Assembly: GCA_019661865.1 (NCBI GenBank)
Contig: JAIFWJ010000002.1
Location: 1 to 50,897 of the forward strand
Direction: 5' to 3'
Origin: Candidatus Parcubacteria bacterium
GTDB taxonomy: Bacteria > Patescibacteriota > Minisyncoccia > Phycocordibacterales > Zambryskibacteraceae
DNA length: 50,897 nt
A program made the position numbers and the translations under genes. This document shows, one piece after another, positions 2,515 to 46,099 of this stretch (within the stretch, counting starts at the first letter, position 1; every line of letters starts with the position of its first letter). The notes under the pieces were generated by a model. The model was not told the origin of the DNA. It was given only the letters and a program-made list of their open reading frames with translations, and did not search any database.

Positions 2515-2598
2515 AAAGAAGAGCTAAAAAAAGTATAGCAGAGTTAACTCTTTTAATGTGAAAGTTGTTCACATCCCCGCCCCGTGTATACTGAACCC

Positions 2599-3363
2599 AT
2601 GAAAATACTTTCTTGGAATGTAAATGGCCTAAGAGCGCTCCATAAGAAAGGCCAATTCGACTGGTTGCTTAAAGAAAGTCCAGATATCATCTGTCTACAG
2701 GAAACTAAGTCACAACCGGACCAGCTATCTCCAGAGGTGAGGAATCCAGAAGGTTACCATTCCTACTTCCACTTCCCTACAGTAAAGAAGGGTTACAGCG
2801 GAGTCTCTATATATAGTAAGAAAGAGCCAGAGAAGGTCATAAATGACTTAGGTATAGAGGAAATGGACCAAGAAGGCAGGCTAATACTGGCTGAATTTGA
2901 AGATTTTACCCTTATAAATACATACTTTCCCAATGGAGGAGGAGCACCCGAGAGGCTCGAATATAAACTTGAATTTTACAAGCATTTTCTAGATTTTGTC
3001 GAGAATTTGAGGAAAAAGCAGCCCAATATTGTGTTCTGCGGGGATGTAAATGTAGCTCATAAGCCCATAGATCTAGCTCGGCCTAAGGAGAATGAGACCC
3101 ATGTAGGCTTCCTCCCTATTGAAAGAGAGTGGATGAGCAAGGTAATTCAACATGATTGGATAGACGTATTCCGACATTTCTATCCTGAGAAAATTCAGTA
3201 TACATATTGGGATCAGAAGAGCTTCGCTCGTGAGAGAAATGTAGGCTGGAGAATAGATTATTTTTTTGTTACCCAAGAAATGTTAGACAAGGTAAAGTCC
3301 ATAAGAGTCCTTGATGAAGTCCTGGGCTCCGACCACTGTCCTATTGTCCTGGAGCTGAAATAA
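2599..3363 (+). CDS. xth: Exodeoxyribonuclease III / AP endonuclease
   Basis: MKILSWNVNGLRA, LQETK, GDVNVAH, GWRIDY and SDHCP motifs. Start moved to ATG 2599, 6 nt after TATACT. Confidence 0.97.
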   Translation: MKILSWNVNGLRALHKKGQFDWLLKESPDIICLQETKSQPDQLSPEVRNPEGYHSYFHFPTVKKGYSGVSIYSKKEPEKVINDLGIEEMDQEGRLILAEFEDFTLINTYFPNGGGAPERLEYKLEFYKHFLDFVENLRKKQPNIVFCGDVNVAHKPIDLARPKENETHVGFLPIEREWMSKVIQHDWIDVFRHFYPEKIQYTYWDQKSFARERNVGWRIDYFFVTQEMLDKVKSIRVLDEVLGSDHCPIVLELK

Positions 3364-3373: not shown

Positions 3374-3382
3374 TTATCCACA
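3374..3382 (+). promoter_or_regulatory. Perfect DnaA box
   Basis: TTATCCACA in intergenic DNA. Confidence 0.65.
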
Positions 3383-3391: not shown

Positions 3392-3419
3392 TGGACATTT
3401 TGTCCTTTACATTTACAAT
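3392..3419 (+). promoter_or_regulatory. Sigma70-like promoter
   Basis: TGGACA-16 bp-TACAAT. The -35 overlaps the palindrome GGACATTTTGTCC. Confidence 0.5.
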
Positions 3420-3422
3420 TGA

Positions 3423-3659
3423 CTCCAGACGCTTGAGGAAACTTCTGGCCCTAATCCCCTCTGTGGATTGCGAGAACCCAGATCAAAATCAAGCATTTGT
3501 TTTTTCGAGAGAGGCCACTCTCTGAAAGGTGTGCTGGTTCTAAACCGGCTACGCCCTGGAGCGCTCATCCTCAACTTTATTTTTTGCGATGTAGACCTCC
3601 TGGCTCCCCTTTTTGTTCTGGCACTTACTTTCACCGCTGCGCTTGCGCGGCGGTTTTTT
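3423..3659 (+). ncRNA. Candidate structured non-coding RNA (~235 nt), family unknown
   Basis: Upstream promoter, several stems (TTGAGGA/TCCTCAA, TCTGG/CCAGA, AATCC/GGATT, AGAGAG/CTCTCT, GCTGGTT/AACCGGC), a 3' terminator and no credible ORF. Confidence 0.5.
3633..3659 (+). terminator. Intrinsic terminator
   Basis: ACCGCTGCG-CTTG-CGCGGCGGT hairpin followed by a T tract. Confidence 0.75.
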
Positions 3660-3793
3660 ATTCTATAGAAATCCCTACCTTGAAGACATTTGGTCTTAAT
3701 CTACATTTGTCTCCTATTGCAAACTGTCTTCAAATAATGTTCATAAGGAAAATGGCTTAAAATAAGGCTTTTTTAGATCCTTAAGTACAATTC

Positions 3794-3821
3794 TGTGGAT
3801 AAGTGTGGGGAATGTGTGCAT
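3794..3821 (-). promoter_or_regulatory. DnaA box plus two degenerate tandem boxes
   Basis: TGTGGATAA (perfect, 3794-3802), then TGTGGGGAA and TGTGTGCAT. Confidence 0.6.
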
Positions 3822-3841
3822 TAGAGACAAATGGCCATAAT

Positions 3842-4100
3842 GTTTTCACGTGAAACTTTTATTAATATGTTTTACATGTAACATTAAGCCATGTACTCAG
3901 CAAAGCGTAAGTTCGGCAATATAGGGGAAAATGTGGCTGTAATGTTTCTCGAGAAACGTGGATTCAAAGTTCTGGAGCGTAATTACTTAAGAAAATGGGG
4001 TGAAATAGATATAGTGGCTGAGAAGTCAGATGTTCTACGCTTTATAGAGGTTAAAAGTGTTTCAGGTGAAATAAATAATAGGGAAGTTACACCTGAAACA
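3842..4100. repeat. parS: Cluster of four parS-like palindromes
   Basis: Matches to TGTTNCACGTGAAACA: 3842-3857 GTTTTCACGTGAAACT (13/16), 3943-3958 TGTTTCTCGAGAAACG (13/16), 4058-4073 TGTTTCAGGTGAAATA (14/16), 4085-4100 AGTTACACCTGAAACA (14/16). Confidence 0.65.
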
Positions 4101-4277
4101 GGTTATAGGCCGGAGGAAAACATGCATCCAGGCAAGATTAAGAGGCTCCATAGAGCCATTCAGACTTACTTACTTGAGAAACACCTAGATAAAGACTGGC
4201 AACTTGACCTTATAACTGTAAGGATTGATGAGAAGAATAGGAAAGCCAAAGCAGAAATGCTTGAAAACATCATTTAA
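3891..4277 (+). CDS. yraN: YraN (UPF0102) family nuclease
   Basis: G..GE..A..FL...GF..LERN...WGEIDIV...FIEVK signature. Confidence 0.93.
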   Translation: MYSAKRKFGNIGENVAVMFLEKRGFKVLERNYLRKWGEIDIVAEKSDVLRFIEVKSVSGEINNREVTPETGYRPEENMHPGKIKRLHRAIQTYLLEKHLDKDWQLDLITVRIDEKNRKAKAEMLENII

Positions 4278-5327: not shown

Positions 5328-6800
5328 ATGACACTTAAGCCAAAATTTAATATCCCCGAAGAGGTGAAGATTATTTCACGCGTCCTTTGGTCTGCCAAGT
5401 TTGAGAACTTTCTTGTCGGAGGATGCGTCCGAGACATCTTGTTGGGAAAAAAGCCCAAGGACTGGGATATCACAACTTCAGCACTTCCTCGAGAGATAGA
5501 AGCCTTATTTGAAAATACATTTTATGAAAATGCATACGGCACTGTCGGAGTGGTAAACGACACAACTACAGATTCAACACTCAAGGTTGTAGAAATTACT
5601 CCGTATCGTACTGAGTCTGGGTACTCAGATTTTCGTCATCCTGATGGAGTAAAGTGGGCTAAGACTCTAGAAGAGGACCTCAAGCGTCGTGACTTCACCA
5701 TAAATGCGCTCGCCTTAGATATAGAAAAAGTAGAATTAATTGATCTCTTCGACGGAGAGAAAGATCTTAAGAAGAATGTTATACGAACAGTTGGAGATCC
5801 GAACGAGCGCTTCACTGAAGATGCACTCCGCATGCTTAGAGCTCTGCGCTTCGCTTCTGAACTCGGCTTCGCTATTGATAGTGATACGCTTCTTGCAATA
5901 GATAAAAATAAAAATCTGCTTGAACATGTTTCTAAAGAGCGCATAAGAGATGAATTCGTGAAGATCATTATGTCCGACAATCCCTCGGTGGCACTCGGAA
6001 TCGCTACACAACTTGGATTACTCCAGTATATTTCTCCGGAATTTGAGAGGGGAGTGGGTATGGAGCAGAACAAGGCACATGCATACACTGTCTGGGAGCA
6101 TTTACTCCGCTCACTTGACCATGCGGCTAAGAAAAATTACCCTCTTCATGTACGCATCGCGGTCCTTCTCCATGATATAGCCAAGCCTCATACACGTAAG
6201 TGGCAGAACGAACAGTGGACTTTCTACGGACACGATGTAGTGGGGGCAAAAGTGACCAAGCAGATTCTCACAGATCTCAAGTTCCCAAAAGAAATTATAG
6301 ACAAGGTGCTGAAGCTCGTGCGCTGGCATATGTTCTTCTCCGACACGGAGACCATTACGCTCTCTGCAGTCCGTCGAATGGTGAGAAACGTTACCCCGGA
6401 GTTAATCTGGGATCTTATGGATGTCCGTGCAGCAGACCGCATCGGCACTGGAAGGCCTAAGGAGAGTCCATACAGACTCAGAAAGTATCACTCCATGATA
6501 GAAGAAGTGATGCGAGATCCCATATCAGTAAAGCAGCTCAAAGTAAGCGGGGGAGATGTCATGAAGATCGCGAGCATTACTCCTGGTCCAAAGATTGGGT
6601 TTATTCTAGAAATTCTTCTTTCAGAAGTTCTAGATGATCCTAAGCGAAATGAAACAGGCTACCTAGAGGAAAGAGTTAAAGAACTTGCAACCCTTCCTGA
6701 AAATGAGCTCAGGAAACAAGGAAGTGAGGCTCGAAGCAGGAATGAAAGTGAGGACGAGAAAGAAAGCGAGGAGATAAAAAAGAAATTCGGAGTGAAATAA
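5328..6800 (+). CDS. cca: CCA-adding tRNA nucleotidyltransferase with HD domain
   Basis: VGGCVRD...KDWDI, RRDFTINA, EDALRMLRALRF and LLHDIAK motifs. Confidence 0.92.
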   Translation: MTLKPKFNIPEEVKIISRVLWSAKFENFLVGGCVRDILLGKKPKDWDITTSALPREIEALFENTFYENAYGTVGVVNDTTTDSTLKVVEITPYRTESGYSDFRHPDGVKWAKTLEEDLKRRDFTINALALDIEKVELIDLFDGEKDLKKNVIRTVGDPNERFTEDALRMLRALRFASELGFAIDSDTLLAIDKNKNLLEHVSKERIRDEFVKIIMSDNPSVALGIATQLGLLQYISPEFERGVGMEQNKAHAYTVWEHLLRSLDHAAKKNYPLHVRIAVLLHDIAKPHTRKWQNEQWTFYGHDVVGAKVTKQILTDLKFPKEIIDKVLKLVRWHMFFSDTETITLSAVRRMVRNVTPELIWDLMDVRAADRIGTGRPKESPYRLRKYHSMIEEVMRDPISVKQLKVSGGDVMKIASITPGPKIGFILEILLSEVLDDPKRNETGYLEERVKELATLPENELRKQGSEARSRNESEDEKESEEIKKKFGVK

Positions 6801-18388: not shown

Positions 18389-19912
18389 ATGGGAGTTTCC
18401 CGAGTTTATTCTGCTCAGACCAACCTTCTCTCAGTACAGATTATTCAGGTAGAAACTGATATCTCTCGAGGACTTTATGCATTTTCTATTGTGGGACTGG
18501 CGGATAAAGCTGTAGAAGAATCTCGTGATAGGGTTAGTGCCGCCATTAAAAATTCTGGCCTCTCCTCTCCGAAAACTAAGAACCAGAAAATTGTAATCTC
18601 CTTGGCACCCGCTTCGGTACCGAAGGAGGGACCAGCCTTCGACTTAGCTATCGCTCTTTCATATTTACTATCTGCAGAGGAGATCGACTTTAGTCCAGAG
18701 GGAAAATTATTTTTAGGAGAATTGTCTCTTGATGGAACCTTGCGCTCAGTGCGAGGAATACTACCTATAACCAAAGCAGCTTTAGAAAAAGGTTTCAAAG
18801 AAATTTTCGTACCTAAGGACAATACTAAGGAAGCTGCACTCATTGATGGTATAAAGGTCTATGGTGCAGCAAATTTAAATGAAGTACTGAAACACCTAAG
18901 CGGAGAAAAATTAATTACTCCAGCTACAAGAACCAAACTTGCTACCAGCAAAATAGAAACCAAAACTGATTTCTCTGACGTGCGCGGACAAGAAAGAGCA
19001 AAGCGCGGACTCCTCATAGCTGCAGCCGGAGGACACAACGCGGCTATGTATGGACCACCAGGTACAGGTAAGACCATGCTGGCTCGGGCCTTCTCAGGGA
19101 TACTCCCTTCACTTACATTCGATGAGTCGCTCGAGACCACAAGTATTTATTCTGTAGCAGGAGTACTCTCAGGTTTTATTACAGAACCACCATTCCGATC
19201 ACCACATCACACCGCATCATATGTTTCCTTGGTCGGTGGAGGAGCTACGCCTCGGCCTGGTGAGGTAACACTTGCGCATAGAGGAGTACTTTTCATGGAT
19301 GAGTTTCCTGAGTTCGAGAGAAGAGTGATAGAGAGCTTACGCCAACCACTTGAGGATAAGGTAATTTCTGTCTCGCGTGCTAAGGGCACCGCACACTTTC
19401 CTGCAGATGTTTTACTCGTCGCAGCTATGAACCCGTGTCCATGTGGAAATTACGGATTTAAAGGAAAACAATGTATATGTACCCCATCAGCACTAGCACG
19501 CTACAGAAGAAAAATGAGTGGACCCATCGTCGATCGCATAGATATATGGCTAGAGGTGGACAGAGTCCTGCCGAGAGACCTAAGCGAGGGAGAAGCAGGA
19601 GAGAGAAGTGAAATCTTCAGAGAGAAAGTAGAAAGAGCAAGAAACATACAGAAGAAACGCTTCGAAAATAATAAAAGTAAACTTTTTAAAAATTCTGAGA
19701 TGTCCGCACGGGATATCACACTTGTTGTAGTTACATCTGACGCCAGACAAACACTCAACCTCGCCGCAGAACGACTCGGCTTCTCGCCCAGAGTTTACCA
19801 TCGCATGCTTAAGGTGGCTCGTACCATAGCTGACCTTGACTCCTCAGAGGATATAAAACGTGACCATATACTTGAGGCAGTAGAATATAGACCGAAGAAA
19901 TTTGATATGTAA
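18389..19912 (+). CDS. comM: ComM/YifB Mg-chelatase-like AAA+ helicase
   Basis: IVGLADKAVEESRDRV, GPPGTGKT, PFRSPHHTAS, LAHRGVLFMDE and MNPCPCG motifs. Confidence 0.95.
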   Translation: MGVSRVYSAQTNLLSVQIIQVETDISRGLYAFSIVGLADKAVEESRDRVSAAIKNSGLSSPKTKNQKIVISLAPASVPKEGPAFDLAIALSYLLSAEEIDFSPEGKLFLGELSLDGTLRSVRGILPITKAALEKGFKEIFVPKDNTKEAALIDGIKVYGAANLNEVLKHLSGEKLITPATRTKLATSKIETKTDFSDVRGQERAKRGLLIAAAGGHNAAMYGPPGTGKTMLARAFSGILPSLTFDESLETTSIYSVAGVLSGFITEPPFRSPHHTASYVSLVGGGATPRPGEVTLAHRGVLFMDEFPEFERRVIESLRQPLEDKVISVSRAKGTAHFPADVLLVAAMNPCPCGNYGFKGKQCICTPSALARYRRKMSGPIVDRIDIWLEVDRVLPRDLSEGEAGERSEIFREKVERARNIQKKRFENNKSKLFKNSEMSARDITLVVVTSDARQTLNLAAERLGFSPRVYHRMLKVARTIADLDSSEDIKRDHILEAVEYRPKKFDM

Positions 19913-25398: not shown

Positions 25399-25477
25399 GA
25401 GAACCAGAGTAAGAACTAAGATTAGAGTGGATTCCGTATACATAGGAGCTTAATTGTCTGTTATACTTTTAGGTAAC

Positions 25478-26248
25478 ATGCGATTTCGCTTGAGTATTGC
25501 TCTTTTAGTATCAGTTGTCCTTATCGGTGGAGCGCTTTTTTACAAATTGAGTGCGTCTCATGGTGAAGCCCAGATTTCTTTTGTACAAGGAGATGAGAAT
25601 AACCTGGCAGATGTCTCTATAAGTCTAGACGGTGACACGGTTACTGATTTATCTGTACCGACCTCTAGCACAAGTACTGACAACCTTTCTACTACTGACC
25701 TTATCGGTCGCTCTCTCTTGTCAGATTATATAAACTTAGCTGCCAACGGAGAGGACACCGAGGACAATGTAAACGCTCTAGCTAATAAGTACGCCGACCA
25801 AGTTCCTACATTAACCATATCTCAAGAGTTAAAAGCCTCAGACGTACAGACTGTCGATGATACCCAGAGTAATTACCAGAAGTATGCAGATGCATTTACT
25901 AAAATCCATAAGACTTACGTAGATTATATAAATAAAACTGGAATCCAGAAGAAAAACATTACCGATCTGGGTCCAGACCTATACTTCGCTGCACGGGCCT
26001 TCAGTATTGCCTACACTCAGGCGGGAGACTCACTTAAGAGTCTTCCGGTGCCACTCTCTCTGGCCTCACTTCACTTACAGCTAGTGAATAGTTATTACTC
26101 GAGCGGAGCAGCCATGCTCGCTATTTCAAAAACTGAGAATGATTCTGCATCGGCCTTCGCCGGACTTGTAACGCTTAGCTCCAATTTGAAAATCGAGGAT
26201 TCTCTTATGGCAGAGATCACAAAGACAATAAATAGTCATGGAGTCTAA
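25478..26248 (+). CDS. Hypothetical membrane-anchored helical protein (start of T4SS-like cluster)
   Basis: ATG 25478 after TGTTATACT, N-terminal TM helix, overlaps the next gene. Confidence 0.78.
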   Translation: MRFRLSIALLVSVVLIGGALFYKLSASHGEAQISFVQGDENNLADVSISLDGDTVTDLSVPTSSTSTDNLSTTDLIGRSLLSDYINLAANGEDTEDNVNALANKYADQVPTLTISQELKASDVQTVDDTQSNYQKYADAFTKIHKTYVDYINKTGIQKKNITDLGPDLYFAARAFSIAYTQAGDSLKSLPVPLSLASLHLQLVNSYYSSGAAMLAISKTENDSASAFAGLVTLSSNLKIEDSLMAEITKTINSHGV

Positions 26249-27980
26249 ACTTAAGAAAAATCTGGTGAGAAAGATTACGACAGTTCTAGTTATTTTTTCT
26301 GTTATAGGTGTAAACTTTTTACCTACGTTTACTCCTAGAGCCAATGCTCAGTTTTCTTCCCTTATAAATAAAGCCCTAGTACAACCCGTAACAGATATTA
26401 AGACCCTTGCTAAATCAATAGCCGATGGCATTGCCATGCACTTGGCACAAAGAATGGTGGATGAAATGGTGAAGTCGACCATTCGTTGGGCTAACACCGG
26501 TTTCGATGGATCTCCAGCATATGTCACAAATCCAGTGCAATATGCAGCAAGCATAGCCAATGGCGTAGCAGGAGATGTCATTAAGGGCACAGATCTTGGC
26601 TTCCTCTGCTCACCCTTCCAAGCCCAAATAAAAATTTCACTTCAGAAATATTATGTTGGAAGTTCGTATCAGCCACAGTGTACTCTTACTCAGATTGGAG
26701 TAAATATAGATAACTTTTACCAGGACTTTAAACAAGGTGGGTGGAATGCTTGGATAGCTATGAGCCAGGATGGAGGAAACCCCTATAGTGCATACATAAA
26801 CGCCCAAGGAGTCTTCGACGATAAGGTGGCTTCAGCTTTAGCAGCTGTGAACCAGAAGCTCGATTGGGCAAGCGGATTTAAGTCTAAGGGAGACTGTATT
26901 GCATATAACCCATCCCAGTCAGACATTGATGATTATGTAAATGGAGGCTTTATAACAGAACATGACACAACACGAAAAATAGACCCGAGTATGCCACCAG
27001 GCGCCTGTATTGAACACGGTCCAGATAAGACTCCTGGAGTTATCATTAAAGATCAGCTAGACAAGGTTCTACCTTCTGGCTTGGATAAGCTCATTACAGT
27101 CCAACACGTCGAGCAGCTCGTTGGTGCCTTCGCTAACGGGCTCCTCACTCGATATGTCTTCGGCCCGAAAGGCCTATTCAGTAAAGACTATGGAGACCAC
27201 TTCGGTGCAAGCAACCAGGCCCCAACAGGTCCGGCAGAACAAGAAGCTACATGTTCTGCCAACAGAGATACTGCCATAACCAATGAGACGGAAGTGACCT
27301 GGTCTGTGACCTCAAGCTTGGGCACACATCTTTCATATACATGGACAGGTGAAGGGCTTGAGAGTGCCACCTCAAGCTCCGCTAAAGTTATCTACACCAC
27401 TCCAGGATCTAAGACTGCATCTGCTACCGTCACAGCAAACCAGGTAGATACCGAAGGAAACATTATAGGCATCTCGGCTGTAAGAACAGTACCCTGTGAA
27501 GGAAACGTGATAGTCACCCAATTTACTCCACTTGCCATGTCATGCTCGGTAAACACTGCCCGTGCCGGAAGAGGAGTGCCGGTAACATGGAAAGCTACTG
27601 TGACCGGAGGATCTGGAGCCTTTACCAAGATCCAGTGGGGAGGAGATGAAACGGATATACCTGGAACACATACATCTGTAGTGCCGCCGATATTCTTATA
27701 CAACCCAAGCTCTGGTATTCCTCCGACTCAGGAGAGAGCATCTGTAAATACGGCAGGCAACACCACCACCCTTACTATCTCTTATGGCCTAGGGCTACAA
27801 TCCATAACCACGATAACTAATAACGGAAGTTCAACAGACATCACACTTAGTAGGCCTTACACCGATAGCGCTCACATACCTGGAGAGAGAGGAGCCAACC
27901 TCACTCTCCTCGATAACGACTCGAGTTTACCAGTGGTTGTGAACCAGGCCTGTACTAATTCAGTGTATATTAGTGATTAA
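26238..27980 (+). CDS. Exported Cys-containing protein with two C-terminal PKD-like repeats
   Basis: Signal ending ANA-Q, 'LCSPF' and 'GGWNAW' motifs, two 'C....VTW...W.G' repeats. Confidence 0.78.
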   Translation: MESKLKKNLVRKITTVLVIFSVIGVNFLPTFTPRANAQFSSLINKALVQPVTDIKTLAKSIADGIAMHLAQRMVDEMVKSTIRWANTGFDGSPAYVTNPVQYAASIANGVAGDVIKGTDLGFLCSPFQAQIKISLQKYYVGSSYQPQCTLTQIGVNIDNFYQDFKQGGWNAWIAMSQDGGNPYSAYINAQGVFDDKVASALAAVNQKLDWASGFKSKGDCIAYNPSQSDIDDYVNGGFITEHDTTRKIDPSMPPGACIEHGPDKTPGVIIKDQLDKVLPSGLDKLITVQHVEQLVGAFANGLLTRYVFGPKGLFSKDYGDHFGASNQAPTGPAEQEATCSANRDTAITNETEVTWSVTSSLGTHLSYTWTGEGLESATSSSAKVIYTTPGSKTASATVTANQVDTEGNIIGISAVRTVPCEGNVIVTQFTPLAMSCSVNTARAGRGVPVTWKATVTGGSGAFTKIQWGGDETDIPGTHTSVVPPIFLYNPSSGIPPTQERASVNTAGNTTTLTISYGLGLQSITTITNNGSSTDITLSRPYTDSAHIPGERGANLTLLDNDSSLPVVVNQACTNSVYISD

Positions 27981-27981
27981 G

Positions 27982-30207
27982 ATGAAGAAAAAACTCCCTT
28001 ACATATTAATCTCAGTACTGGTATTCTCTACAATCTTTCTTGTCCCTCATATTACTCACGCTCAAATAATCTCATCTATTACTGGTGGTGCTGCTAAGTG
28101 GTTACTTGCATTACCAGGAACCATTGCTACCAAGTATTTACTCCCTCTAGTAGGATACCTCACTGCTTTCGCGGGACTGATTCTTAACTATGTTATTTAT
28201 CAGACTGTACTCCACATGTCTGATTTGTTCCCTAACGCTAGCATCATTAATGATACTTGGAATGTTATTCGTGATGTTGCCAATATGTGCTTCATCTTCT
28301 TGCTTCTGTACTCCGCTATTCAAACCATCTTTGGCCAAGGTAAAACCCGAGAGTTAATTGTAAATATTATCATCGCAGCCTTGTTGGTTAACTTCAGTCT
28401 CTTCTTTACTAAAGTTATAGTGGATTCTTCAAACATTTTGGCCATTTCTATCTATAACTCTATTGCTCCAGGTGCTATAAGTACTCCTGACGTAACTAAC
28501 GCGGGGCTCTCGAATTCTGTCATGGCTCCATTACAGTTACAGACTATTTATAAATATACCCAACCACTCGACGGGGTTAAGTTACTTACTATAGGAGTGC
28601 TGGGTTCGATTTTCGCTCTTGTTGCGGCATTCGTATTTTTCGTGGCGGCAATAATGTTCGTGGTGAGATTCGTAGTAATCCTTTTCTTAATGATACTTTC
28701 TCCCGTGTGGATACTTGGAGGCGTGATCCCGGGACTGAAGGGGATACAGAAACAATGGCTGGAGTCACTAGTTGGCCAAGCTGTCTTCGCCCCTATATTT
28801 TTCTTATTGGTCTGGATTGTGCTAAAGATCGGCAATGCTTTATACAAACCGGGAAGCATTGCAGATGCTCTACTGAATACCGCTGCAGCGGGAGCGAACA
28901 ATACTAGCCAGATCAACACTAGTGGTAGCACCATGGGTGTAATCTTCAGCTTCGTCATTATGATAGGAATGCTCATCGCAGCCCTCATCATTTCTAAGAG
29001 CTTCTCCACCCGAGGAGCTAAACAGATTGGACAACTTACCGGCTTTGCCGCAGGTGCAGTCATGGGTGGAGCAGCAAGCCTCGGCAGAAAATCCTTTGGT
29101 GCTGCTGGTTCTAAATTTGCTGATAGTGAAGCCCTGAAGAACCGTGCTCAACAGGGGGGCTTAAGCGGCTTTGCTGCTCGGAGAGCTCTCGACCTTAGCA
29201 GTGCTGCGTCGAAAACAAGCTTCGATCTTCGAGGCGCGGGTGGCCCAGCTAAGGGTCTTGTGGGTATAGCAGGGGGAGGCAAGGCGGGTGGCCAAGGAGG
29301 TTATGCCAAACAAGTTGCTGACGAGACCAAGAGAAAGGAAGAGAAGGTCAAACTGTATACGCAGACGTCAGATATCACTAAGGACAAAGCCAAGCGGGAT
29401 CTAGAAGCGGCTAAGAAGATGGAGTTACAGGATCCGGAAACGCTAACCGCCTGGAAAGCAGAACAAAACAAGAGATCACAAGAAGCTAGAGAGGCAGAAA
29501 GAGAGTTGGCCAACGCCCAAGCACGAGGTGCAGACCCAGATACTATTACAGCATTAAGGAAGAAATCCAATGATGCTAATAATGAAAGACAGAAAATTCA
29601 GACCATTCGAGGATTTAAAGACGCAAGGATTGAAATGGCTCAGAAGCGAGCTGATAAGCTTGAGGGAATAAATAAAAAAGAATCAGACAGTAGAAAAGCT
29701 GACCTTAACAAAGAAGAAGAGGCGAAATTAAAAAATGATCCGGCAATCAAGAGACAGGTGGATCTTAAAAAAGAGATGGAGGATCTTACTAAACAAATCG
29801 CTACTCAGACAGGCACGATTAAAGATGATATGCAGCGTGAACTCGACGCCAAAAGTAAGTTATTTGAAACGGTAGCAAAGGAAGCAGAGGAGAGAAGTAA
29901 GACCATCAAAGCAGAATTCCAAGAAAGAAGAGATCTTATAAGAGAAGAGAAGAGTCTAGGTGAGGAGAGAAAGGAAGCTGCCATAAAGAGCATGCTAAAC
30001 CCGAGCATAATAGACAGTGACAGAATACTCTTTGTTGGCCCGGTTAAAAGATCTAATCTCCAAGCTGCAGCAAACTTAAGAAAAGGTAAGAAATCAATCA
30101 GGGAGCGGGTTGAGGAACTGATGAAAGACAATGAAGATATTCCAAAGAAGGACGAAGAGAGGAAAGAGGGAGGAGAAAAACCTGAAGGTGAGGGCGAAAA
30201 GAAATAA
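27982..30207 (+). CDS. VirB6/TrbL-like polytopic membrane protein with Gly/Ala linker and charged coiled-coil tail
   Basis: W...RD.AN, LLVNFSLFFTK..VD.SN and RFVVILFLMILSP...W motifs, 6-7 TM helices, adjacent to PrgI/VirB4. Confidence 0.72.
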   Translation: MKKKLPYILISVLVFSTIFLVPHITHAQIISSITGGAAKWLLALPGTIATKYLLPLVGYLTAFAGLILNYVIYQTVLHMSDLFPNASIINDTWNVIRDVANMCFIFLLLYSAIQTIFGQGKTRELIVNIIIAALLVNFSLFFTKVIVDSSNILAISIYNSIAPGAISTPDVTNAGLSNSVMAPLQLQTIYKYTQPLDGVKLLTIGVLGSIFALVAAFVFFVAAIMFVVRFVVILFLMILSPVWILGGVIPGLKGIQKQWLESLVGQAVFAPIFFLLVWIVLKIGNALYKPGSIADALLNTAAAGANNTSQINTSGSTMGVIFSFVIMIGMLIAALIISKSFSTRGAKQIGQLTGFAAGAVMGGAASLGRKSFGAAGSKFADSEALKNRAQQGGLSGFAARRALDLSSAASKTSFDLRGAGGPAKGLVGIAGGGKAGGQGGYAKQVADETKRKEEKVKLYTQTSDITKDKAKRDLEAAKKMELQDPETLTAWKAEQNKRSQEAREAERELANAQARGADPDTITALRKKSNDANNERQKIQTIRGFKDARIEMAQKRADKLEGINKKESDSRKADLNKEEEAKLKNDPAIKRQVDLKKEMEDLTKQIATQTGTIKDDMQRELDAKSKLFETVAKEAEERSKTIKAEFQERRDLIREEKSLGEERKEAAIKSMLNPSIIDSDRILFVGPVKRSNLQAAANLRKGKKSIRERVEELMKDNEDIPKKDEERKEGGEKPEGEGEKK

Positions 30208-30209
30208 TT

Positions 30210-30908
30210 ATGAACCCCGAAGAAGTACTTAAACAACAAATAGAATCTGCCCCTCAAGAAATTAAAGAATTTCTTGCTGGAGAAGAGTGGGAACCGGTTA
30301 TTAATAATCTTGCAAACAACTCCGGACTGACAGAGGAACAGAAAACTTCAGTAGAAAATGAAATAATTTTCGTTCTTGTAGGTTTAGACCTAAGGTCAAA
30401 CCTTAAACAAAATCTTCAAAACATCGGCCTCTCAGATACCATAGCTAAGTTCGTAGCTGCACAAATAGATACAAAGATCTTAGAAAGATTTGAAGGAATC
30501 TTACCCACCTCTGAGGAAGCTCCTAGGAAAACGATTTCTTGGCCGGAGGAACCAGATTCACAAACTCATACCGCCCCTCCAGAGAACTTGCCGGTAGTTG
30601 AAGAACATGAGCCCACTCCAATGGTAGTAGAAATTAAGGAGAAACCGCCAGAACCTATAGTTCCAAGAGCAAGTACATATCAAGAGACTATAAATAAGCT
30701 ATTTACCCGCCCTGCCGCTCCTCCTGGAGCTGCCCCTTCCACTCCACCTACAAAAAGTCTAAACCTTATAGACTCAACACCCGAGGTAAAACCAGCGTTT
30801 GAGATTAAGAGCACCCCTCCTACACAGCCAGAGGCTCCGGATCTCGCTTCAGATCCACAAAAAAACTACCCCGGAGATAAGGATCCATATCGCGAACCGC
30901 TAGAGTAG
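30210..30908 (+). CDS. Hypothetical protein: helical N-terminus, Pro-rich linker, C-terminal DPYREP motif
   Basis: 232 aa, tightly packed in the cluster. Confidence 0.78.
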   Translation: MNPEEVLKQQIESAPQEIKEFLAGEEWEPVINNLANNSGLTEEQKTSVENEIIFVLVGLDLRSNLKQNLQNIGLSDTIAKFVAAQIDTKILERFEGILPTSEEAPRKTISWPEEPDSQTHTAPPENLPVVEEHEPTPMVVEIKEKPPEPIVPRASTYQETINKLFTRPAAPPGAAPSTPPTKSLNLIDSTPEVKPAFEIKSTPPTQPEAPDLASDPQKNYPGDKDPYREPLE

Positions 30909-30922
30909 GGTAAAATACTCTC

Positions 30923-31348
30923 ATGCGTTTCCAAGTTCCTCAGTTCATTGAAGTCGAGGACAAGATCTTCGGCCCTCTTACCTTCAAACAGTTCATTTAC
31001 ATCGCTGGTGGGGTAGGAATATGTGTAATTCTATTCACCTTTCTACCGAAATTCTTCGCCCTTTTACTCTCAGCACCAATTGTAGCTCTGGCTGGCTCAC
31101 TGGCATTTTATAAAGTTAACGGCAAACCTTTCGCCTCGCTGCTTGAAGCTTTTTTAAAGTACGAATTTTCAGAGAAGTTATATGTATGGAAGAAGCAAGA
31201 CAAGACACCGGTCCACACCGAGATGAAGAGGGAAGCCAGTGAAGTTTATATCCCTAAGCTCTCTTCCTCCAAGCTCAAGGATCTTTCATGGAGCCTCGAT
31301 GTTCAGGACAATCAGAATCCTGTAACACAGGAAGAAACCAAGATATAA
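30923..31348 (+). CDS. PrgI family (VirB3-like) membrane protein
   Basis: F.VPQFIEVEDKIFGPLTFKQF plus two TM helices. Confidence 0.85.
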   Translation: MRFQVPQFIEVEDKIFGPLTFKQFIYIAGGVGICVILFTFLPKFFALLLSAPIVALAGSLAFYKVNGKPFASLLEAFLKYEFSEKLYVWKKQDKTPVHTEMKREASEVYIPKLSSSKLKDLSWSLDVQDNQNPVTQEETKI

Positions 31349-31357
31349 TTGAGATAA

Positions 31358-31996
31358 ATGGCACCTAGTAAAAGCAGCACCCAGGAGTTTGTACCCATTC
31401 AAGAAGTACGCGACGGCATCTTGGTACTTAAGGATGGCGGCATGCGTGCGGTAGTGCTCGCCTCGTCACTTAACTTTTCTTTAAAATCAGATGATGAGAA
31501 GAACGCAATACTATTCCAGTTTCAAGATTTCCTAAACTCCCTCGATTTCTCCATCGAAATAGTAATTCAGTCTAGGAAACTAGATATCAGACCCTACATC
31601 GCCCTACTCGAAGAACAACATAAGAAGCAACTAAACAGCCTTTTAAAGATCCAAACGGAAGAATATATCGAGTTCGTGAGAAACTTCGCTGAGAATACCA
31701 ATATCATGACTAAGAACTTCTTTATCGTGGTGCCTTATGACCCGGCAATCATAGGCTCTAGCACGGTCTCTGGGATCTCAAGCCTCATAGGCGGTAAGAA
31801 AACTACTCCTGCACAAGCGAGTGAGATGAGTTTCGAGGAAAACCGTACACAGCTTGAGGAAAGAGTGGGGGTGGTAGAACAGGGACTTGTGCGCACCGGT
31901 ATACGAGTAGCAAGGCTTGGTACAGAAGAATTGATCGAGCTCTTCTACAAGGCATTTAACCCCGGAGAAACTGAGAAGCCCCTTAAAGCAGCTTAA
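31358..31996 (+). CDS. TraC/VirB4 N-terminal-like protein
   Basis: LNF.LKS.DE......FQ.FLNSLDF..IQS and KNFFIVVPY motifs; lies between PrgI and the ATPase. Confidence 0.72.
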   Translation: MAPSKSSTQEFVPIQEVRDGILVLKDGGMRAVVLASSLNFSLKSDDEKNAILFQFQDFLNSLDFSIEIVIQSRKLDIRPYIALLEEQHKKQLNSLLKIQTEEYIEFVRNFAENTNIMTKNFFIVVPYDPAIIGSSTVSGISSLIGGKKTTPAQASEMSFEENRTQLEERVGVVEQGLVRTGIRVARLGTEELIELFYKAFNPGETEKPLKAA

Positions 31997-32005
31997 AATA
32001 AAGTT

Positions 32006-33838
32006 ATGGCACTTTTTTCAGGATTATTTAGTAAAGGAGAGGAGAAGAGGAAAGATATTCCTTCCATATTGCCTAAGGAAATTTTCCAAGCCTCGGTACT
32101 CGAGCTTAAAGACATTATTGCTCCTTCTGCGCTTAAAGTAACACCAAAAGAATTAAACCTGGGTGAGAAAATTACTAGATCCTTCTTCGTTATATCGTAT
32201 CCCAGATTCTTAACAGAGAGTTGGTTCTCACCGATTATAAATATGGATAAGGTTTTCGATGTATCCATCTTTATCCATCCGATAGAGACTTCTAAAGTTC
32301 TCCGCCAATTTCAAAAGAAGGTGGCCGAAGTTCAAAGTCAGATCCACACCAGGGAAGAAAGAGGTCTTGTGCGTGACCCCATGCTCGACGTAGCCTACCA
32401 AGACCTCGAAAGCTTACGTGATCAACTCCAACAGGCACAGGAGAAGCTTTATGATGTAGGTCTCTACATAACTATTTATGGAGACAATGAAGAAGGGCTC
32501 GATAAGATCGAATCCGAGATAAAGTCTATTCTCGAAGCCAAGCTTGTATACATAAAGCCAGCACTCTTCCAACAAGAAGAAGGGTACAAGAGCACACTTC
32601 CATTAGGAAATGACCTTCTGGCAGTCCACTCCAAACTTAATTCTTCACCACTTTCATCCCTTTTCCCATTTACATCCTTCGACCTTACCTCAGACAAGGG
32701 CATTCTGTATGGTATTAACCGCCACAACTCCTCCCTTGTCCTCTTCGACCGGTTCTCACTGGAGAACTACAACTCCATCACCTTCGCCAAGTCTGGTGCG
32801 GGTAAGTCATATGCCACTAAGCTTGAGATTCTGCGTACGCTTATGTTCGACACAGAGGTCATATGCATGGATCCAGAAAACGAGTATGAGTACCTCGCTG
32901 AGGCCGTAGGCGGAAGGTATTTTAAAATTTCTCTTAACTCCGAGCACCACATAAATCCTTTTGACCTGCCTCTACCCGGCCCTGACGAGTCGGCTGCCAA
33001 TGTGCTGCGTAGTAACATCATTAACCTAGTGGGACTCTTCAGACTTATGATGGGAGGACTTACAGCAGAGGAAGATGCCATCATAGACCGTGCCATCACC
33101 GAGACTTATGCACTTAAGGATATTACAGCTGATTCTGACTTCAGAAATATAGAACCTCCACTTATGTCTGACTTCGAGCTTGTACTTTCTGGTATGGAAG
33201 GAGGGGACTCCTTAGCCCAAAGACTTACTAAGTACACTAAAGGTACATGGGCCGGATTCATAAACAAACCGACCAATGTAGATATAAATAAGAAGTTCGT
33301 GGTTTTTTCTCTCCGTGATATGGAAGACGAGCTCAAGCCCATCGCCATGTACATTGTCACTCACTACATCTGGAATGCTATTCGTAAGGAACTTAAGAAA
33401 AGACTACTTGTTATCGATGAAGCTTGGTGGATGATGAAGTCTGACGACACCGCCTCCTTCCTTATGGGACTTGTGAAGCGCGGAAGAAAGTACTACTTGG
33501 GCGTGGCTACCATTACCCAAGATGTAGATGACTTCTTGAAGTCTCCCTACGGATTACCTATCATTACTAACTCATCTATCCAGGTACTTCTTAAACAGTC
33601 TCCGACGATTATCGATAAACTCCAAACTACTTTTAATCTTACCGACGAAGAAAAATATTTACTCTTGGAGTCTGATGTAGGAGAGGGGATATTCTTCGCC
33701 GGGCTTAAGCACGTAGCCATTAAGATAATTGCTTCTTACACAGAAGACCAAATTATCACATCCGATCCTTCGCAGGTTCTGGCCATAAAGAAGGCTAGGG
33801 AATTAGAACAACATGGAAACACAAGAGAAGGGCAGTAA
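32006..33838 (+). CDS. VirB4-like T4SS ATPase
   Basis: GILYGIN, Walker A AKSGAGKS, DPENEY, INPFD, Walker B LLVIDEAW and RGRKY...ITQ. Confidence 0.9.
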   Translation: MALFSGLFSKGEEKRKDIPSILPKEIFQASVLELKDIIAPSALKVTPKELNLGEKITRSFFVISYPRFLTESWFSPIINMDKVFDVSIFIHPIETSKVLRQFQKKVAEVQSQIHTREERGLVRDPMLDVAYQDLESLRDQLQQAQEKLYDVGLYITIYGDNEEGLDKIESEIKSILEAKLVYIKPALFQQEEGYKSTLPLGNDLLAVHSKLNSSPLSSLFPFTSFDLTSDKGILYGINRHNSSLVLFDRFSLENYNSITFAKSGAGKSYATKLEILRTLMFDTEVICMDPENEYEYLAEAVGGRYFKISLNSEHHINPFDLPLPGPDESAANVLRSNIINLVGLFRLMMGGLTAEEDAIIDRAITETYALKDITADSDFRNIEPPLMSDFELVLSGMEGGDSLAQRLTKYTKGTWAGFINKPTNVDINKKFVVFSLRDMEDELKPIAMYIVTHYIWNAIRKELKKRLLVIDEAWWMMKSDDTASFLMGLVKRGRKYYLGVATITQDVDDFLKSPYGLPIITNSSIQVLLKQSPTIIDKLQTTFNLTDEEKYLLLESDVGEGIFFAGLKHVAIKIIASYTEDQIITSDPSQVLAIKKARELEQHGNTREGQ

Positions 33839-34130
33839 AATACTTGATGGAGAATGGGAAGTTTTGACCTATGCAGTTATTTTCCTTGATGGAATACAGA
33901 TAGTGTTTGATTTTACCCTCCCTGGACTAAATGAGGTTTTAGATCCGTTTGTGGGTTTAGGGTTAGCAATTTATTTCATTATTAGAGGGGTGAGGATGAC
34001 ACTAGGAAGGGTATTTATGTTAATCGGCTTCGGTATAGGAGAGGAGATTCCCTTCGTTGATGCATTGCCGTTCTGGACTCTTGAAGTTCTAAGGGTTAAG
34101 AGTTGGGATATGCAGGACAAAAATTCTTGA
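33813..34130 (+). CDS. Small hydrophobic membrane protein
   Basis: 105 aa with 'EEIPFVDALPFWT' motif. Overlaps the end of VirB4. Confidence 0.72.
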   Translation: METQEKGSKILDGEWEVLTYAVIFLDGIQIVFDFTLPGLNEVLDPFVGLGLAIYFIIRGVRMTLGRVFMLIGFGIGEEIPFVDALPFWTLEVLRVKSWDMQDKNS

Positions 34131-34150
34131 TCTTCCTATATAATAGATTT

Positions 34151-35176
34151 ATGTATAAATTGTTCTTGGTGTGGACTTTACCTGTGTTTCTCTTCACCTC
34201 TTTTGCCTTCACCCAGACGACTGTTCAGGCTCAAGTAGACATTCCTGAAGTTCCCGATGAACAGATTCCGACTGACATAACTCTGGAACCAATTTCTTTC
34301 CTAATAGTACCTGAGACTCCGGCCCCTGGAGATCTGGTCACAGTAAGCATTGAGTCTACGAACTTGGATTTAGACTCAGCCATTATGCGTTGGACGGTTA
34401 ATGGAGGACTGGTAAAAAGCGGCAAGGGTATCAAGCAGATTAACGTCACGAATGGTGGCTCGGGCTCTCAGACAACCGTAAGTGTAAGTATTTCTTCCGG
34501 CGGAGCCACCATTACCCGGTCAACTACCTTCGGGGCTGGTAATGTAGATCTTCTCTGGCAAGGAGACACCTATGCTCCTCCTTTCTATGCTGGGAGACAC
34601 CTCTGGACTCACGGAAGCCGCCTAACTCTACTCGCTATCCCAGACTCAAGTCTTGGAAGCGCCTCGGCTCTTATATATAGATGGAGCCAGAGCGGCACAA
34701 TTCTTGGAGCTTCCTCTGGTGCAGGGAGGAGTTCTCTTTCTTTCTATGACTCAATCCTATCTTTACCTCAGGATATATCTGTAGATGTAATGACTGACCA
34801 AGACACCGTCGTGGCGACTAAAACCATCCACCTACAACCCACAGATGTCACAACTCTTCTCTACGAGGACAATCCACTTATTGGTCTGCTTTTAAATAAA
34901 GAAGTAGACGGATCATATGGTCTTACTGATAAAGAGGTAACCTTCTCAGCCATGCCTATGTTCTACTCTGTTCAAAATAGAACAGACAAGAGAGTGAGTT
35001 ATACCTGGAGCACCAACAGTGGAGCTGCGAACACCGGCAACCACATAACACTCCGCATTCCAGATAACTCGAGTGGCCAAGCCCAAGTGGGAGTTAACAT
35101 AAATAATTCTGCTAACCTCCTACAAACTGCTTCCAAAAGCTTTTTAGTAAAATTCGGTAACACACCGAGCTTCTGA
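34151..35176 (+). CDS. Exported Ig-like beta-rich protein
   Basis: ATG 34151 lies 6 nt after TATAAT. Signal peptide and repeated 'Y.W' Ig-type motifs. Confidence 0.78.
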   Translation: MYKLFLVWTLPVFLFTSFAFTQTTVQAQVDIPEVPDEQIPTDITLEPISFLIVPETPAPGDLVTVSIESTNLDLDSAIMRWTVNGGLVKSGKGIKQINVTNGGSGSQTTVSVSISSGGATITRSTTFGAGNVDLLWQGDTYAPPFYAGRHLWTHGSRLTLLAIPDSSLGSASALIYRWSQSGTILGASSGAGRSSLSFYDSILSLPQDISVDVMTDQDTVVATKTIHLQPTDVTTLLYEDNPLIGLLLNKEVDGSYGLTDKEVTFSAMPMFYSVQNRTDKRVSYTWSTNSGAANTGNHITLRIPDNSSGQAQVGVNINNSANLLQTASKSFLVKFGNTPSF

Positions 35177-35177
35177 T

Positions 35178-36248
35178 ATGAACAACGTGAAGAAAATCTT
35201 TTTATTAATATTCACACTTGCGACTCTAAGTCCTTTTACTCTTCTTCATGCACAAACCAAAACAGGTTGTCCCGCTGGGCAATACTGTCTTCTCGCGCCT
35301 CTCCCGGTGGGGAATCCTACTGGAGGTAATATAGATCATGTAACAGTAACCGGCGCAGGAGACTATATTGCAAACCTGGTGAAGCTCATCATAGCTATAG
35401 CAGGTGGTCTCGCTGTCTTGCGTATAATCATTGGAGGGTTTCAGTACATCACCTCTGAGGCTTTCAGCAGTAAGTCCGCTGCGAAAGATACTATCCAGAA
35501 CGCTGTCCTGGGATTCCTCCTTGCTGCTGGATCATTCTTAATATTGAATACAATAAACCCGGATTTAACCAACATTAATTTGACACTGGAAAATGTCGGA
35601 TCAACTCAAAAACTCGACACATCCTTCAGTGGCGGGACAGACTCCACAGAACCTGACGGAACAAGTGGTGGTAAAACTGCGGCAGAGGTGGATTGTTTGG
35701 TTGACTGTGTACCAATACCTGACGAGATTCCCCACAAACCTCCAGGCCCAGCTGGCAGCCCATCGGCGGGGTGTCTTACTCCCGGACCGTGTTATGTTTA
35801 TTCAGGCCTTGCGACTAAGTTATCTGCATTAAATGAGGCCCTCCAACACAACCCTTATAATTTAGACTGGGAGGTTACGGAAATGTTTCCGCCTGTAGCT
35901 AGTCATGATAGTGATTGCCACAAACCAAACAATGGAAATACGGGAAAATGCGTTGACGCAACCCTTAGAAGTCCCACAACTCCAGAGAACACTGTAAAGT
36001 TTTTCATAGCCATAAATAAATTTGTCAGCCCAAGTTTCCAATGGGAGGAGCCGGACAATGCTTCAAGAGACGCCCGCAGACTTGCTCTTAAACAATACAT
36101 CCAGTCCCGCCCTCCATCGGACTTCAACATAACTGCGTCTCAGGTTCCTCAATTCATAACTGATATAATTTGCAAAGTTAAGACTGTCGCTCACGCAACA
36201 GGTGAGCATGTTCACATTAACTGGGCTGGTCAAGCACCATCATGTTAA
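35178..36248 (+). CDS. TrbC/VirB2-like pilin fused to a Cys-rich putative zinc peptidase domain
   Basis: Two-TM pilin signature AVLRIIIGGFQYITS...AKDTIQNAVLG...ILNTINPDL. C-terminal H..CH...G.CVD...EHVH. Confidence 0.7.
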   Translation: MNNVKKIFLLIFTLATLSPFTLLHAQTKTGCPAGQYCLLAPLPVGNPTGGNIDHVTVTGAGDYIANLVKLIIAIAGGLAVLRIIIGGFQYITSEAFSSKSAAKDTIQNAVLGFLLAAGSFLILNTINPDLTNINLTLENVGSTQKLDTSFSGGTDSTEPDGTSGGKTAAEVDCLVDCVPIPDEIPHKPPGPAGSPSAGCLTPGPCYVYSGLATKLSALNEALQHNPYNLDWEVTEMFPPVASHDSDCHKPNNGNTGKCVDATLRSPTTPENTVKFFIAINKFVSPSFQWEEPDNASRDARRLALKQYIQSRPPSDFNITASQVPQFITDIICKVKTVAHATGEHVHINWAGQAPSC

Positions 36249-38634: not shown

Positions 38635-38725
38635 GATTTAACAAGTTATGAACACATTATAAACACTTTTCAGCCTTAGAACAAGACTTCCTACCTGAAG
38701 GAGAAAAGTTATACTGTTGTACAAC

Positions 38726-40075: not shown

Positions 40076-40287
40076 CCTGTGGAATAAATGTTTACAAACT
40101 GAAGCTACGAGTGGAATAAATCAGCAGTTATGAACAGAGAAACAGAAAACAAAGAAAAAGCTATCTCCGATATTAATTCTTATACACATTTTAATTTTTT
40201 AAAAAACAAGATTCCATCTCTCAACAAAGAGCTTAAAAAGTTTTCCCCAGTTTCCACACCCCTAATAGTATTAACAAGTATTTATAT
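40076..40287 (+). other. oriC: Probable oriC
   Basis: AT-rich dnaA-dnaN spacer with boxes TTATGAACA (40128), TTATACACA (40180) and tandem TTTTCCCCA/GTTTCCACA (40241-40258), followed by CCC and TAA-TAG-TAT-TAA-CAA DnaA-trio-like repeats. Confidence 0.8.
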
Positions 40288-46069: not shown

Positions 46070-46071
46070 AT

Positions 46072-46099
46072 GATAAAACCCCTTAAAAGGGGTTTTATC
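46072..46099. terminator. Bidirectional terminator
   Basis: GATAAAACCCCT-TAAA-AGGGGTTTTATC between convergent genes. Confidence 0.85.

Follow-up and report, generated by a model that had tools for sequence, protein, structure and literature searches.

A probable parS-type centromere island in and around the yraN gene of a Parcubacteria-group bacterium

Introduction

What could keep five similar palindromes in place across the start of one bacterial gene, two in the spacer before it and three among its codons? The locus that raises this question lies on contig JAIFWJ010000002.1 of Candidatus Parcubacteria bacterium (GenBank assembly GCA_019661865.1), of which we analysed positions 1 to 50,897 of the forward strand (50,897 nucleotides; hereafter the window). 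The palindromes are 16-bp sequences that resemble parS, the site of chromosomal ParB/Spo0J proteins, and the gene is yraN, which encodes a predicted nuclease of the UPF0102/YraN family. In relatives the motif equals the parS consensus TGTTNCACGTGAAACA of chromosomal ParB/Spo0J sites, as given in the review PMC7022226, and the window sites match it at 13–14 of 16 positions. Because the motif equals this consensus and the sites are clustered, origin-proximal, rare elsewhere and conserved, we consider it probable that the five palindromes are the local copy of a parS/ParB-loading centromere island that the Parcubacteria group carries at yraN. That ParB is the protein that reads them, that segregation is their function and that they exert any regulatory effect, we infer.

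Results

Distribution of the sites

A search with TGTTTCACGTGAAACA allowing at most three mismatches returned five matches in the 50,897 bases, at 3842, 3868, 3943, 4058 and 4085 (U1, U2, C1, L1 and L2, respectively; Table 1). All fall inside 259 bp, and the remainder of the 50.9-kb window outside 3842–4100 has none. Dinucleotide-preserving shuffles of the window gave 0.17 ± 0.38 matches, and none of 100 shuffles reached five. When position 5 was set to N and at most two mismatches were allowed, three of the five places remained, against 0.05 expected. A weight matrix trained on 193 sites from relatives ranked the five sites first to fifth in the window, at 21.1, 17.6, 16.9, 16.3 and 16.0 bits, with the next best at 11.0; simulated windows held a mean of 0.05 sites of at least 16.0 bits, and at least one such site occurred in 9 of 200 simulations. 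The relaxed core TTTCAYRTGAAA had three matches with at most one mismatch (0.8 expected), two of them within the cluster. The half-site GTTTCAC occurs twice in the window against 5.8 ± 2.6 expected and is not enriched; its scarcity may hint at avoidance outside the island, although the difference is not significant.

The initial annotation, made from the sequence letters alone, had listed four parS matches of 13–14/16 within 260 bp, three of them in yraN, and had considered them to be of parS type, clustered and non-random. Its coordinates and sequences were correct, as were the peptides that it had assigned to the three internal sites (MFLEKR, VSGEI and VTPET), and the shuffles bear out the clustering. 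The fifth match, of 13/16, is added here.

We searched a genome collection with the YraN protein and took the best 80 of 360 relatives (48–68% identity), together with 3-kb flanks where the contig allowed. These are metagenome-assembled genomes labelled Nomurabacteria, Zambryskibacteria, Kaiserbacteria, Adlerbacteria, Taylorbacteria, Paceibacteria and Minisyncoccia; the label 'uncultured Candidatus Saccharibacteria' is carried by many third-party assemblies and that of Burkholderiales by one. In the NCBI taxonomy, Nomurabacteria and Zambryskibacteria are separate candidate phyla within the Parcubacteria group. One locus in which yraN is cut at a contig end (L056) was omitted from coding-sequence and position counts, leaving 79 loci; L023, with an N in its coding sequence, was omitted from codon resampling and from alignment A1, and L031, identical to L030, was omitted from A1.

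In these relatives, parS-like 16-mers recur at the same offsets as in the window. One or two sites lie 15–130 bp 5' of the start codon, and within the gene sites occupy the F-L-x-K codons (3943 in the window), a place one codon past E-V-K (4058) and another 24–27 bp further on (4085), so that the five window sites are positional homologues of conserved sites. At least one site of any kind is present in 74 of the 79 loci. The upstream site is found in 69 loci with at most three mismatches, in 53 with at most two and in 25 with at most one, and a perfect TGTTTCACGTGAAACA stands at the homologous upstream position in L030, L031 and L044 (L030 and L031 being the same here). A weaker second upstream site, 16 or 23–27 bp after U1, also recurs, for example as TGTTTTACATGAAACA at −24/−23 in L063 and L066. 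The F-L-x-K site (the position of C1) is seen with at most three mismatches in 33/79 loci. The loop that follows E-V-K holds at least one site in 54/79 and a site at the L1 offset in 32/79; in 16 loci a second loop site lies 24 or 27 bp past the first position, and two loop sites occur together in 5/79.

Among seven close relatives, 11 of the 12 positions of the U1 core are invariant, and the surrounding intergenic DNA is unconserved. Over the 79 loci, the density of sites with at most three mismatches is 11.3 per kb in the 100 bp 5' of yraN, 2.5–5.2 per kb in the first 300 bp of the gene and about 1 per kb at −1600 to −600, compared with 0.025 per kb (5 matches) in about 200 kb beyond +400. 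In five loci (L028, L049, L060, L067 and L078, near locus position 3261–3300), a further parS-like site occupies a third region of YraN, where it encodes N-V-S-x-E-T immediately ahead of a conserved W-Q-x-D; the window equivalent is only a weak 10.3-bit match at 4168–4183.

Codon choice and protein loops

We held each YraN protein fixed and redrew its codons 500 times from the codon usage of the same locus. Across 78 loci, 96 coding-sequence sites with at most three mismatches were observed, against 7.1 ± 2.3 after resampling (maximum 15); with at most two mismatches the figures were 42 and 1.5 ± 1.2. The yraN of the window alone has three sites at the looser threshold where resampling yields 0.038, a number that no resampled sequence reached in 500. 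The DNA motif is therefore selected beyond the protein. Individual codons reflect this selection: in the columns of L1, Val57 is encoded by GTT in 57 of 73 Val codons (32% background) and Arg59 by CGT in 26 of 40 Arg codons (13%), and within C1 Leu20 is encoded by CTC in 34 of 78 Leu codons (19%). Loci that have no F-L-x-K site encode the identical F-L-E-K residues by TTT TTA GAA AAA. The identical 16-mer is found in intergenic DNA, in yraN on the plus strand and in cca on the minus strand. The initial annotation had named loss of the palindromes at synonymous positions in relatives as evidence against its proposal; they are kept.

The encoded protein matches the family profile. Its 128 residues match Pfam UPF0102 (PF02021) at 65.7 bits (cut-off 23.6, E 4.9e-18) and the PDB entry 3FOV at E 2.8e-6; the NCBIfam YraN models all score below their cut-offs for this protein (best 89.4 bits against 111). 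Residues D40, E53 and K55 are invariant among 78 aligned sequences and align with the same residues of E. coli YraN, and we take them, from the fold family, to be the PD-(D/E)xK catalytic residues.

Of the three frames in which parS can be read, one contains TGA; the other two give V-S-R-E-T and F-H-V-K. All 59 yraN loop sites in the 79 loci are in the V-S-R-E-T frame. The F-L-x-K site uses the other one and bears the mismatches that Leu demands. From the catalytic Lys to a conserved R-P-E, the YraN loop ranges from 8 to 43 residues, with one V-S-x-E-T unit in short forms and a common form that reads K-S-V-S-R-E-T-L-x-x-V-x-R-E-T-L-D. Between the catalytic K/R and the invariant K that comes next, the window protein has 28 residues and the shortest Parcubacteria forms have 18; L2 falls in the roughly nine residues that the window protein has in excess of E. 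coli and short Parcubacteria YraN.

The same units appear in an unrelated enzyme. The gene cca adjoins yraN in 63 of the 80 loci and in the window, in two arrangements. Where it lies downstream on the same strand (15 loci including the window), its loop from G-T-V-G to E-V-T-P-Y-R has a median of 14 residues (9–21) and cca holds no sites. Where it lies upstream and divergent (49 loci), the median is 22 (13–50) in the 31 loci that could be parsed, and cca has sites in 39 of the 49, always in the V-S-x-E-T frame and often nine codons apart; 28 loop sites fall in the 31 parsed loci. The length of the cca loop follows the number of sites (Spearman rho 0.85, n = 46, the loop pattern having failed to parse 18 of 64 cca genes).

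These comparisons support the view that the parS motif shapes protein loops, as YraN loop length tracks the number of V-S-x-E-T units. Judging from alignment gaps and length variation, the V-S-x-E-T segments are probably placed in surface loops. The initial annotation had proposed both that the centromere motif shapes the nuclease loop and that the loop after FIEVK is longer than is typical. The former agrees with the tracking of units and their presence in cca, and the latter holds against E. coli YraN, the one outside comparator (28 against 19 residues). The flanks of 76 coding-sequence sites hold at most 0.9 bit per position and conservation is confined to the 16-bp core, so that the selected unit is the palindrome itself; a mobile 27-bp module carrying parS was rejected on these grounds.

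The DnaA box and the genomic setting

The sites at yraN are accompanied by a DnaA box. Of the 79 loci, 67 have a perfect box in the 300 bp that precede yraN, in the same orientation in all except L045, and the box of the window is invariant in seven of seven aligned close relatives. The perfect box usually precedes the first parS by 50–130 bp, with conserved AAAGGACA/TGTCTTTT repeats after it, and relatives repeatedly have another box-like 9-mer at a distance of 12 or about 21 bp. In the close relatives the distance from box to parS exceeds that of the window, which is without the intervening hairpin-like block. In most loci with divergent cca, repeats of AAAGGACA, TGTCTTTT or AAAAGACA sit between the box and the first parS, about 40–170 bp upstream of yraN (L029–L080); the window keeps one copy, GAGACA at 3824–3829. 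A perfect 9-nt inverted repeat, ATGGCTTAA (3752–3760) and TTAAGCCAT (3884–3892), flanks the DnaA boxes and the parS-like sites. The second arm reaches into the start codon of yraN; in close relatives both arms are kept, and the second arm precedes the first parS.

DnaA boxes with at most one mismatch are not significantly enriched in the window as a whole (16 against 11.7 expected, a number reached in 15 of 100 shuffles). The highest DnaA-box score in the window, 8, belongs to the 300 bp before the parS-like sites, and the spacer between dnaA and dnaN scores 7. A third perfect box, at 46390–46398, stands at the 3' end of ruvC (46376–46906, minus strand) beside the 46069–46376 spacer, and the 300 bp up to it tie for the second-highest score. 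In E. coli K-12 (L081, 5395–6400), yraN lies directly upstream of diaA, which encodes the DnaA initiator-associating protein. The adjacency may be coincidental; if not, it ties yraN to DnaA a second time, in a distant phylum.

A consensus scan of 3662–3890 passed no sigma-70-like promoter. The initial annotation had placed a dyad, TTACATGTAA, over the yraN −10 box: the dyad is present and lies inside a 13/16 match; the overlap with a −10 box was not confirmed by the scan.

Table 1. Features of the window discussed in the text (coordinates are positions in the window)
Feature	Position	Strand	Description
DnaA box, perfect	3794..3802	-	TTATCCACA on the minus strand, TGTGGATAA on the plus strand; 0 mismatches; 40 bp upstream of U1
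Two DnaA-box-like 9-mers	3804..3823	-	TGTGGGGAA at 3804-3812 and TGTGCATTA at 3815-3823; 2 mismatches each; abut the perfect box
U1 GTTTTCACGTGAAACT	3842..3857		13/16; perfectly palindromic in its inner 12 bp, TTTCACGTGAAA; 49 bp 5' of the ATG of yraN
U2 TGTTTTACATGTAACA	3868..3883		13/16; 23 bp before the start codon; holds dyad TTACATGTAA (3872-3881)
yraN	3891..4277	+	UPF0102 / YraN family, predicted PD-(D/E)xK nuclease, 128 amino acids
C1 TGTTTCTCGAGAAACG	3943..3958		13/16; 14-bp perfect palindrome; encodes M-F-L-E-K-R; top matrix score, 21.1 bits
L1 TGTTTCAGGTGAAATA	4058..4073		14/16; encodes V-S-G-E-I; begins one codon past the presumed catalytic E53-V54-K55
L2 AGTTACACCTGAAACA	4085..4100		13/16; encodes V-T-P-E-T; 27 bp (9 codons) after L1, same frame
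comM (YifB/ComM helicase)	18389..19912	+	Pfam; TIGR00368 561.5 bits against cut-off 362.4; without parS-like site
dnaA-dnaN spacer	40076..40287		70% A+T; several degenerate DnaA boxes; A/T tract

The 5' neighbour of yraN is xth (2584–3363), separated from it by a 527-bp spacer. On the 3' side follow a C39-peptidase-like gene on the opposite strand, four tRNA genes and cca (5328–6800). The window also contains rnpA–yidC, dnaA (38717–40075) and dnaN (40288–41400), and the parS-like cluster lies 35–36 kb from the dnaA region. We regard the dnaA–dnaN spacer as the likeliest oriC, which would put about 36 kb between it and the cluster; the GC skew of the window tracks gene strand and gives no oriC position. 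PMC13663708 describes a partnership and co-evolution of YraN with ComM and sets YraN in the natural transformation pathway. The link to ComM drawn by the initial annotation is thus in print, and comM is present in the window.

Two further features of the window deserve mention. Between xth and yraN lies a candidate small RNA gene (3392–3662, plus strand), with a promoter-like TGGACA-16-TACAAT (3392–3419), a strong terminator (3633–3654) with a T-run and a perfect DnaA box just upstream (3374–3382). It is kept in L002, L003, L006, L020 and L026, with compensatory changes in 22 of 41 predicted pairs of the consensus fold (six sequences), and no Rfam family matches 3392–3662. Near dnaA, between an rRNA dimethylase gene and yidC, a block of genes at 25454–37477 (plus strand) encodes PrgI-like, TraG/VirB4-like ATPase and type IV secretion pilin-like domains and adjoins many unassigned open reading frames; it resembles a type IV secretion or conjugation-like cluster.

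Alternative readings

Several observations weigh against a working centromere at yraN. All window sites carry two or three mismatches, the best matching at 14/16, and their binding strength is uncertain; the central bases, ACGT in the consensus, are altered in C1, L1 and L2 (TCGA, AGGT and ACCT). No ParB was found among the 53 open reading frames of the window at E 1e-5 or among its 22 unassigned frames at E ≤ 1, nor by a crude search for GERR and EN[ILV]QR in six frames of the window and of the 80 loci with their 3-kb flanks. We infer the position of oriC, at dnaA–dnaN, and skew in the window gives no position for it. The training sites of the weight matrix were picked by likeness to the consensus, and the loci share phylogeny, L030 and L031 being identical, so that the counts overstate the number of independent events.

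In the synteny group of the window (n = 14) the best upstream site has 1–4 mismatches, most often three; in the group with divergent cca (n = 49) the commonest values are one and two. Between −1700 and +450 the mean number of sites is 2.6 in the former and 4.3 in the latter. The window sites are weak versions of the motif and typical of their own group. Because that group keeps the inner TTTCA-YR-TGAAAC core while the outer bases vary, its sequences argue for continued, perhaps relaxed, selection rather than decay.

This bears directly on the possibility that the sites are the relic of a centromere, that is, an ancestral ParB loading site left to decay without function after ParB was lost or respecified. 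Such a history would fit five sites with two to three mismatches each, an upstream site worse than in the cca-divergent group, a cca without sites throughout the synteny group of the window and the lack of a ParB in the window. Neutral decay, however, should have erased the sites. Relatives that are 62–69% identical in YraN keep the U1 core (11/12 positions) and keep C1 by means of rare codons, and the window itself retains three coding-sequence sites where 0.038 are expected. We consider a relic unlikely.

The palindromes might instead form an operator array for a different DNA-binding protein, one that controls yraN (and cca) and not segregation; the binder could be YraN itself, a transcription factor acting locally or a ParB-like regulator of KorB or Noc type. 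Nearly all loci have two sites in the last 50 bp before the start codon, and some of these sites end at the ATG; the sites accompany yraN through two synteny types, with the DnaA box co-conserved, and no ParB was seen in the window or the flanks. Against this, the consensus is that of chromosomal parS to the base, perfect 16-mers included, and three to eight sites spread over 0.3–1.7 kb and deep into coding sequence are unlike an operator. Nor does a conserved regulator gene adjoin the sites: some close relatives have an ArsR-type gene 3' of yraN, which the window does not. An array of this kind strikes us as improbable.

Could the DnaA box be the principal element and the palindromes its accessories? 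The region would then be a replication-origin or DnaA-control element (the second half of an origin, or a site of DnaA titration or reactivation). The perfect box in 67/79 loci, mostly in one orientation and followed by box-like 9-mers and the AAAGGACA/TGTCTTTT repeats, speaks for this, as does the top DnaA-box score of the window before the sites (8 against 7). Cross-talk among ParB, ParA and DnaA is established elsewhere, according to PMC7022226. However, the window has only one perfect and two weak boxes here, the dnaA–dnaN spacer has boxes of its own with an A/T tract and 70% A+T, boxes are not enriched overall (16 against 11.7) and skew gives no support. We judge it very improbable that the region is mainly a replication-origin or DnaA-control element.

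A further candidate was hairpin formation, with the palindromes acting as messenger RNA or cruciform DNA structure in attenuation or stability. The RNA of 4050–4108 folds at −15.4 kcal/mol (z −3.9) and that of 3836–3890 at −11.4 kcal/mol (z −3.4), neither being equalled by any of 200 shuffles, and L1 and L2 together form a 14-nt, 93% inverted repeat. Similar palindromes pair in any case, though, and since only 5/79 loci have two loop sites the L1–L2 stem is unconserved. What is conserved is sequence and not pairing; genes of either strand carry the sites, as do spacers that look untranscribed, C1 alone is not unusually stable (z −1.2) and neither the sites nor the spacer match an Rfam family. 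The RNA-hairpin reading was rejected because its pairing partners are unconserved even where the folds beat the shuffles, and we hold hairpins of either kind to be highly improbable.

An origin by chance, or as a side effect of protein sequence and codon choice, deserves next to no credence: the conserved F-L-x-K of YraN does ease a partial match at C1, but loci without the site use TTT TTA GAA AAA, and the shuffles (0.17 against 5), the synonymous resampling (7.1 against 96; 0.038 against 3 in the window) and the weight-matrix simulation exclude it.

Discussion

We return to the reading that we favour, a centromere island at yraN, and consider how it might operate, going by what is established for chromosomal ParB and parS. 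ParB dimers would recognise the 16-bp palindromes, close as clamps that depend on cytidine triphosphate and slide outwards, and loading would build one complex for partition and for loading of SMC (structural maintenance of chromosomes) in the origin-proximal region, about 35 kb from dnaA. As the island spans genes, selection would place coding-sequence sites in those two frames of parS that contain no stop. One of these, T GTT TCA CGT GAA ACA, gives V-S-R-E-T and may have been put into tolerant surface loops through in-frame additions of 24–27 bp; the other, TG TTT CAC GTG AAA CA, gives F-x-V-K and may have been fitted, with one or two mismatches as the price, to the conserved F-L-x-K of YraN. 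The weak sites of the window probably act as a cluster of low-affinity loading sites.

With two sites no more than 50 bp from the start codon and a conserved DnaA box just 5' of them, occupancy by ParB and DnaA may, as a conjecture, also damp yraN transcription; regulation of yraN by the sites is plausible on position alone. A more ambitious form of this idea makes a gene-embedded island the main chromosomal centromere of the Parcubacteria group, with in-frame V-S-R-E-T units rebuilding surface loops of YraN and, in many lineages, of the CCA-adding enzyme, and joins it to an almost invariant DnaA box in a cell-cycle switch at the yraN promoter. We find this combination doubtful, and extend the same guarded view to its corollary, that through occupancy by ParB and DnaA the transformation D-loop nuclease would be expressed according to how replication and segregation stand in the origin region. 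The initial annotation had read the locus as dual-coded DNA in which the centromere shapes a nuclease loop and may couple ParB to the expression of a recombination gene, and this overall interpretation is partly supported. It did not note that the window sites are weak copies of much better ones in relatives, that a conserved DnaA box forms part of the module or that in other lineages the island reaches into cca.

To our knowledge, the chromosome biology of the candidate phyla radiation (CPR) is almost unstudied, and the island supplies a concrete centromere candidate for these uncultured bacteria. As a landmark, the combination of DnaA box, parS pair and yraN might serve to orient and check metagenome-assembled genomes. 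The locus is also a case of overlapping codes, in which a DNA-binding motif that is kept through codon choice and small in-frame insertions determines both the residues and the length of loops in a pair of unrelated enzymes; loop motifs of the V-S-x-E-T type should accordingly be taken for protein features only with caution. If it is true that occupancy by ParB or DnaA gates yraN, the resolution step in natural transformation would be tied to how far chromosome segregation and replication have gone.

Our literature search, in full text and with few subscription journals, returned nothing on parS or ParB in Parcubacteria, Patescibacteria, Saccharibacteria or the CPR, and nothing on parS in connection with YraN. 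Full-text searches likewise returned nothing on parS kept in coding sequence at synonymous sites or on pairing of parS with a DnaA box at yraN. Within these searches, the new elements are a centromere island fixed at yraN (and cca) throughout one group of the CPR, the V-S-x-E-T loop units in two enzymes and the pairing with a DnaA box.

Other elements are already known, namely parS within genes, parS arrays and ParB acting on neighbouring promoters. A gene-internal parS is found, for example, in spo0J of B. subtilis. With the chromosomal parS of ParB/Spo0J systems the sites described here share the 16-bp palindrome, an origin-proximal position (about 35 kb from dnaA), the location of some sites within coding sequence and, in relatives, the coexistence of degenerate sites with better ones. 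They differ in that the island stays with yraN (and cca), and not beside parAB, in lineages that the NCBI taxonomy treats as separate candidate phyla of the Parcubacteria group, in that sites lie 16–27 bp apart and are accommodated by in-frame loop additions, and in the two to three mismatches of the window sites. Dense arrays of parS near parAB occur in Caulobacter, Myxococcus, Corynebacterium and Streptomyces, where many copies within a few kb likewise make up one centromere. Those arrays flank the par operon, whereas here three to eight sites in 0.3–1.7 kb extend across two housekeeping genes, and we know of no description of those arrays as remodelling protein loops.

A parS directly upstream of a gene, as at yraN, has precedents. 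In P. aeruginosa, promoter-proximal parS3 and parS4 lie upstream of PA0011 and PA0013 and neighbouring genes are repressed, according to PMC7022226. In S. pneumoniae, ParB spreads from parS to comCDE (PMC4488948), a target in the competence and transformation pathway, to which YraN belongs as well (PMC13663708). The candidate target here would be the D-loop nuclease itself and not the competence regulators. The KorB–OB operators of IncP plasmids, at which a ParB-family protein acts as a regulator, are likewise palindromic ParB-family sites at or near promoters; they differ in operator sequence and in their plasmid context, the motif here being that of chromosomal parS. Finally, B. subtilis has promoters controlled by DnaA boxes and clusters of such boxes outside oriC, and the isolated, conserved TTATCCACA upstream of an origin-region gene resembles them, with the difference that the box at yraN is coupled, in 67/79 loci, to a parS pair at a roughly constant distance of about 50–130 bp.

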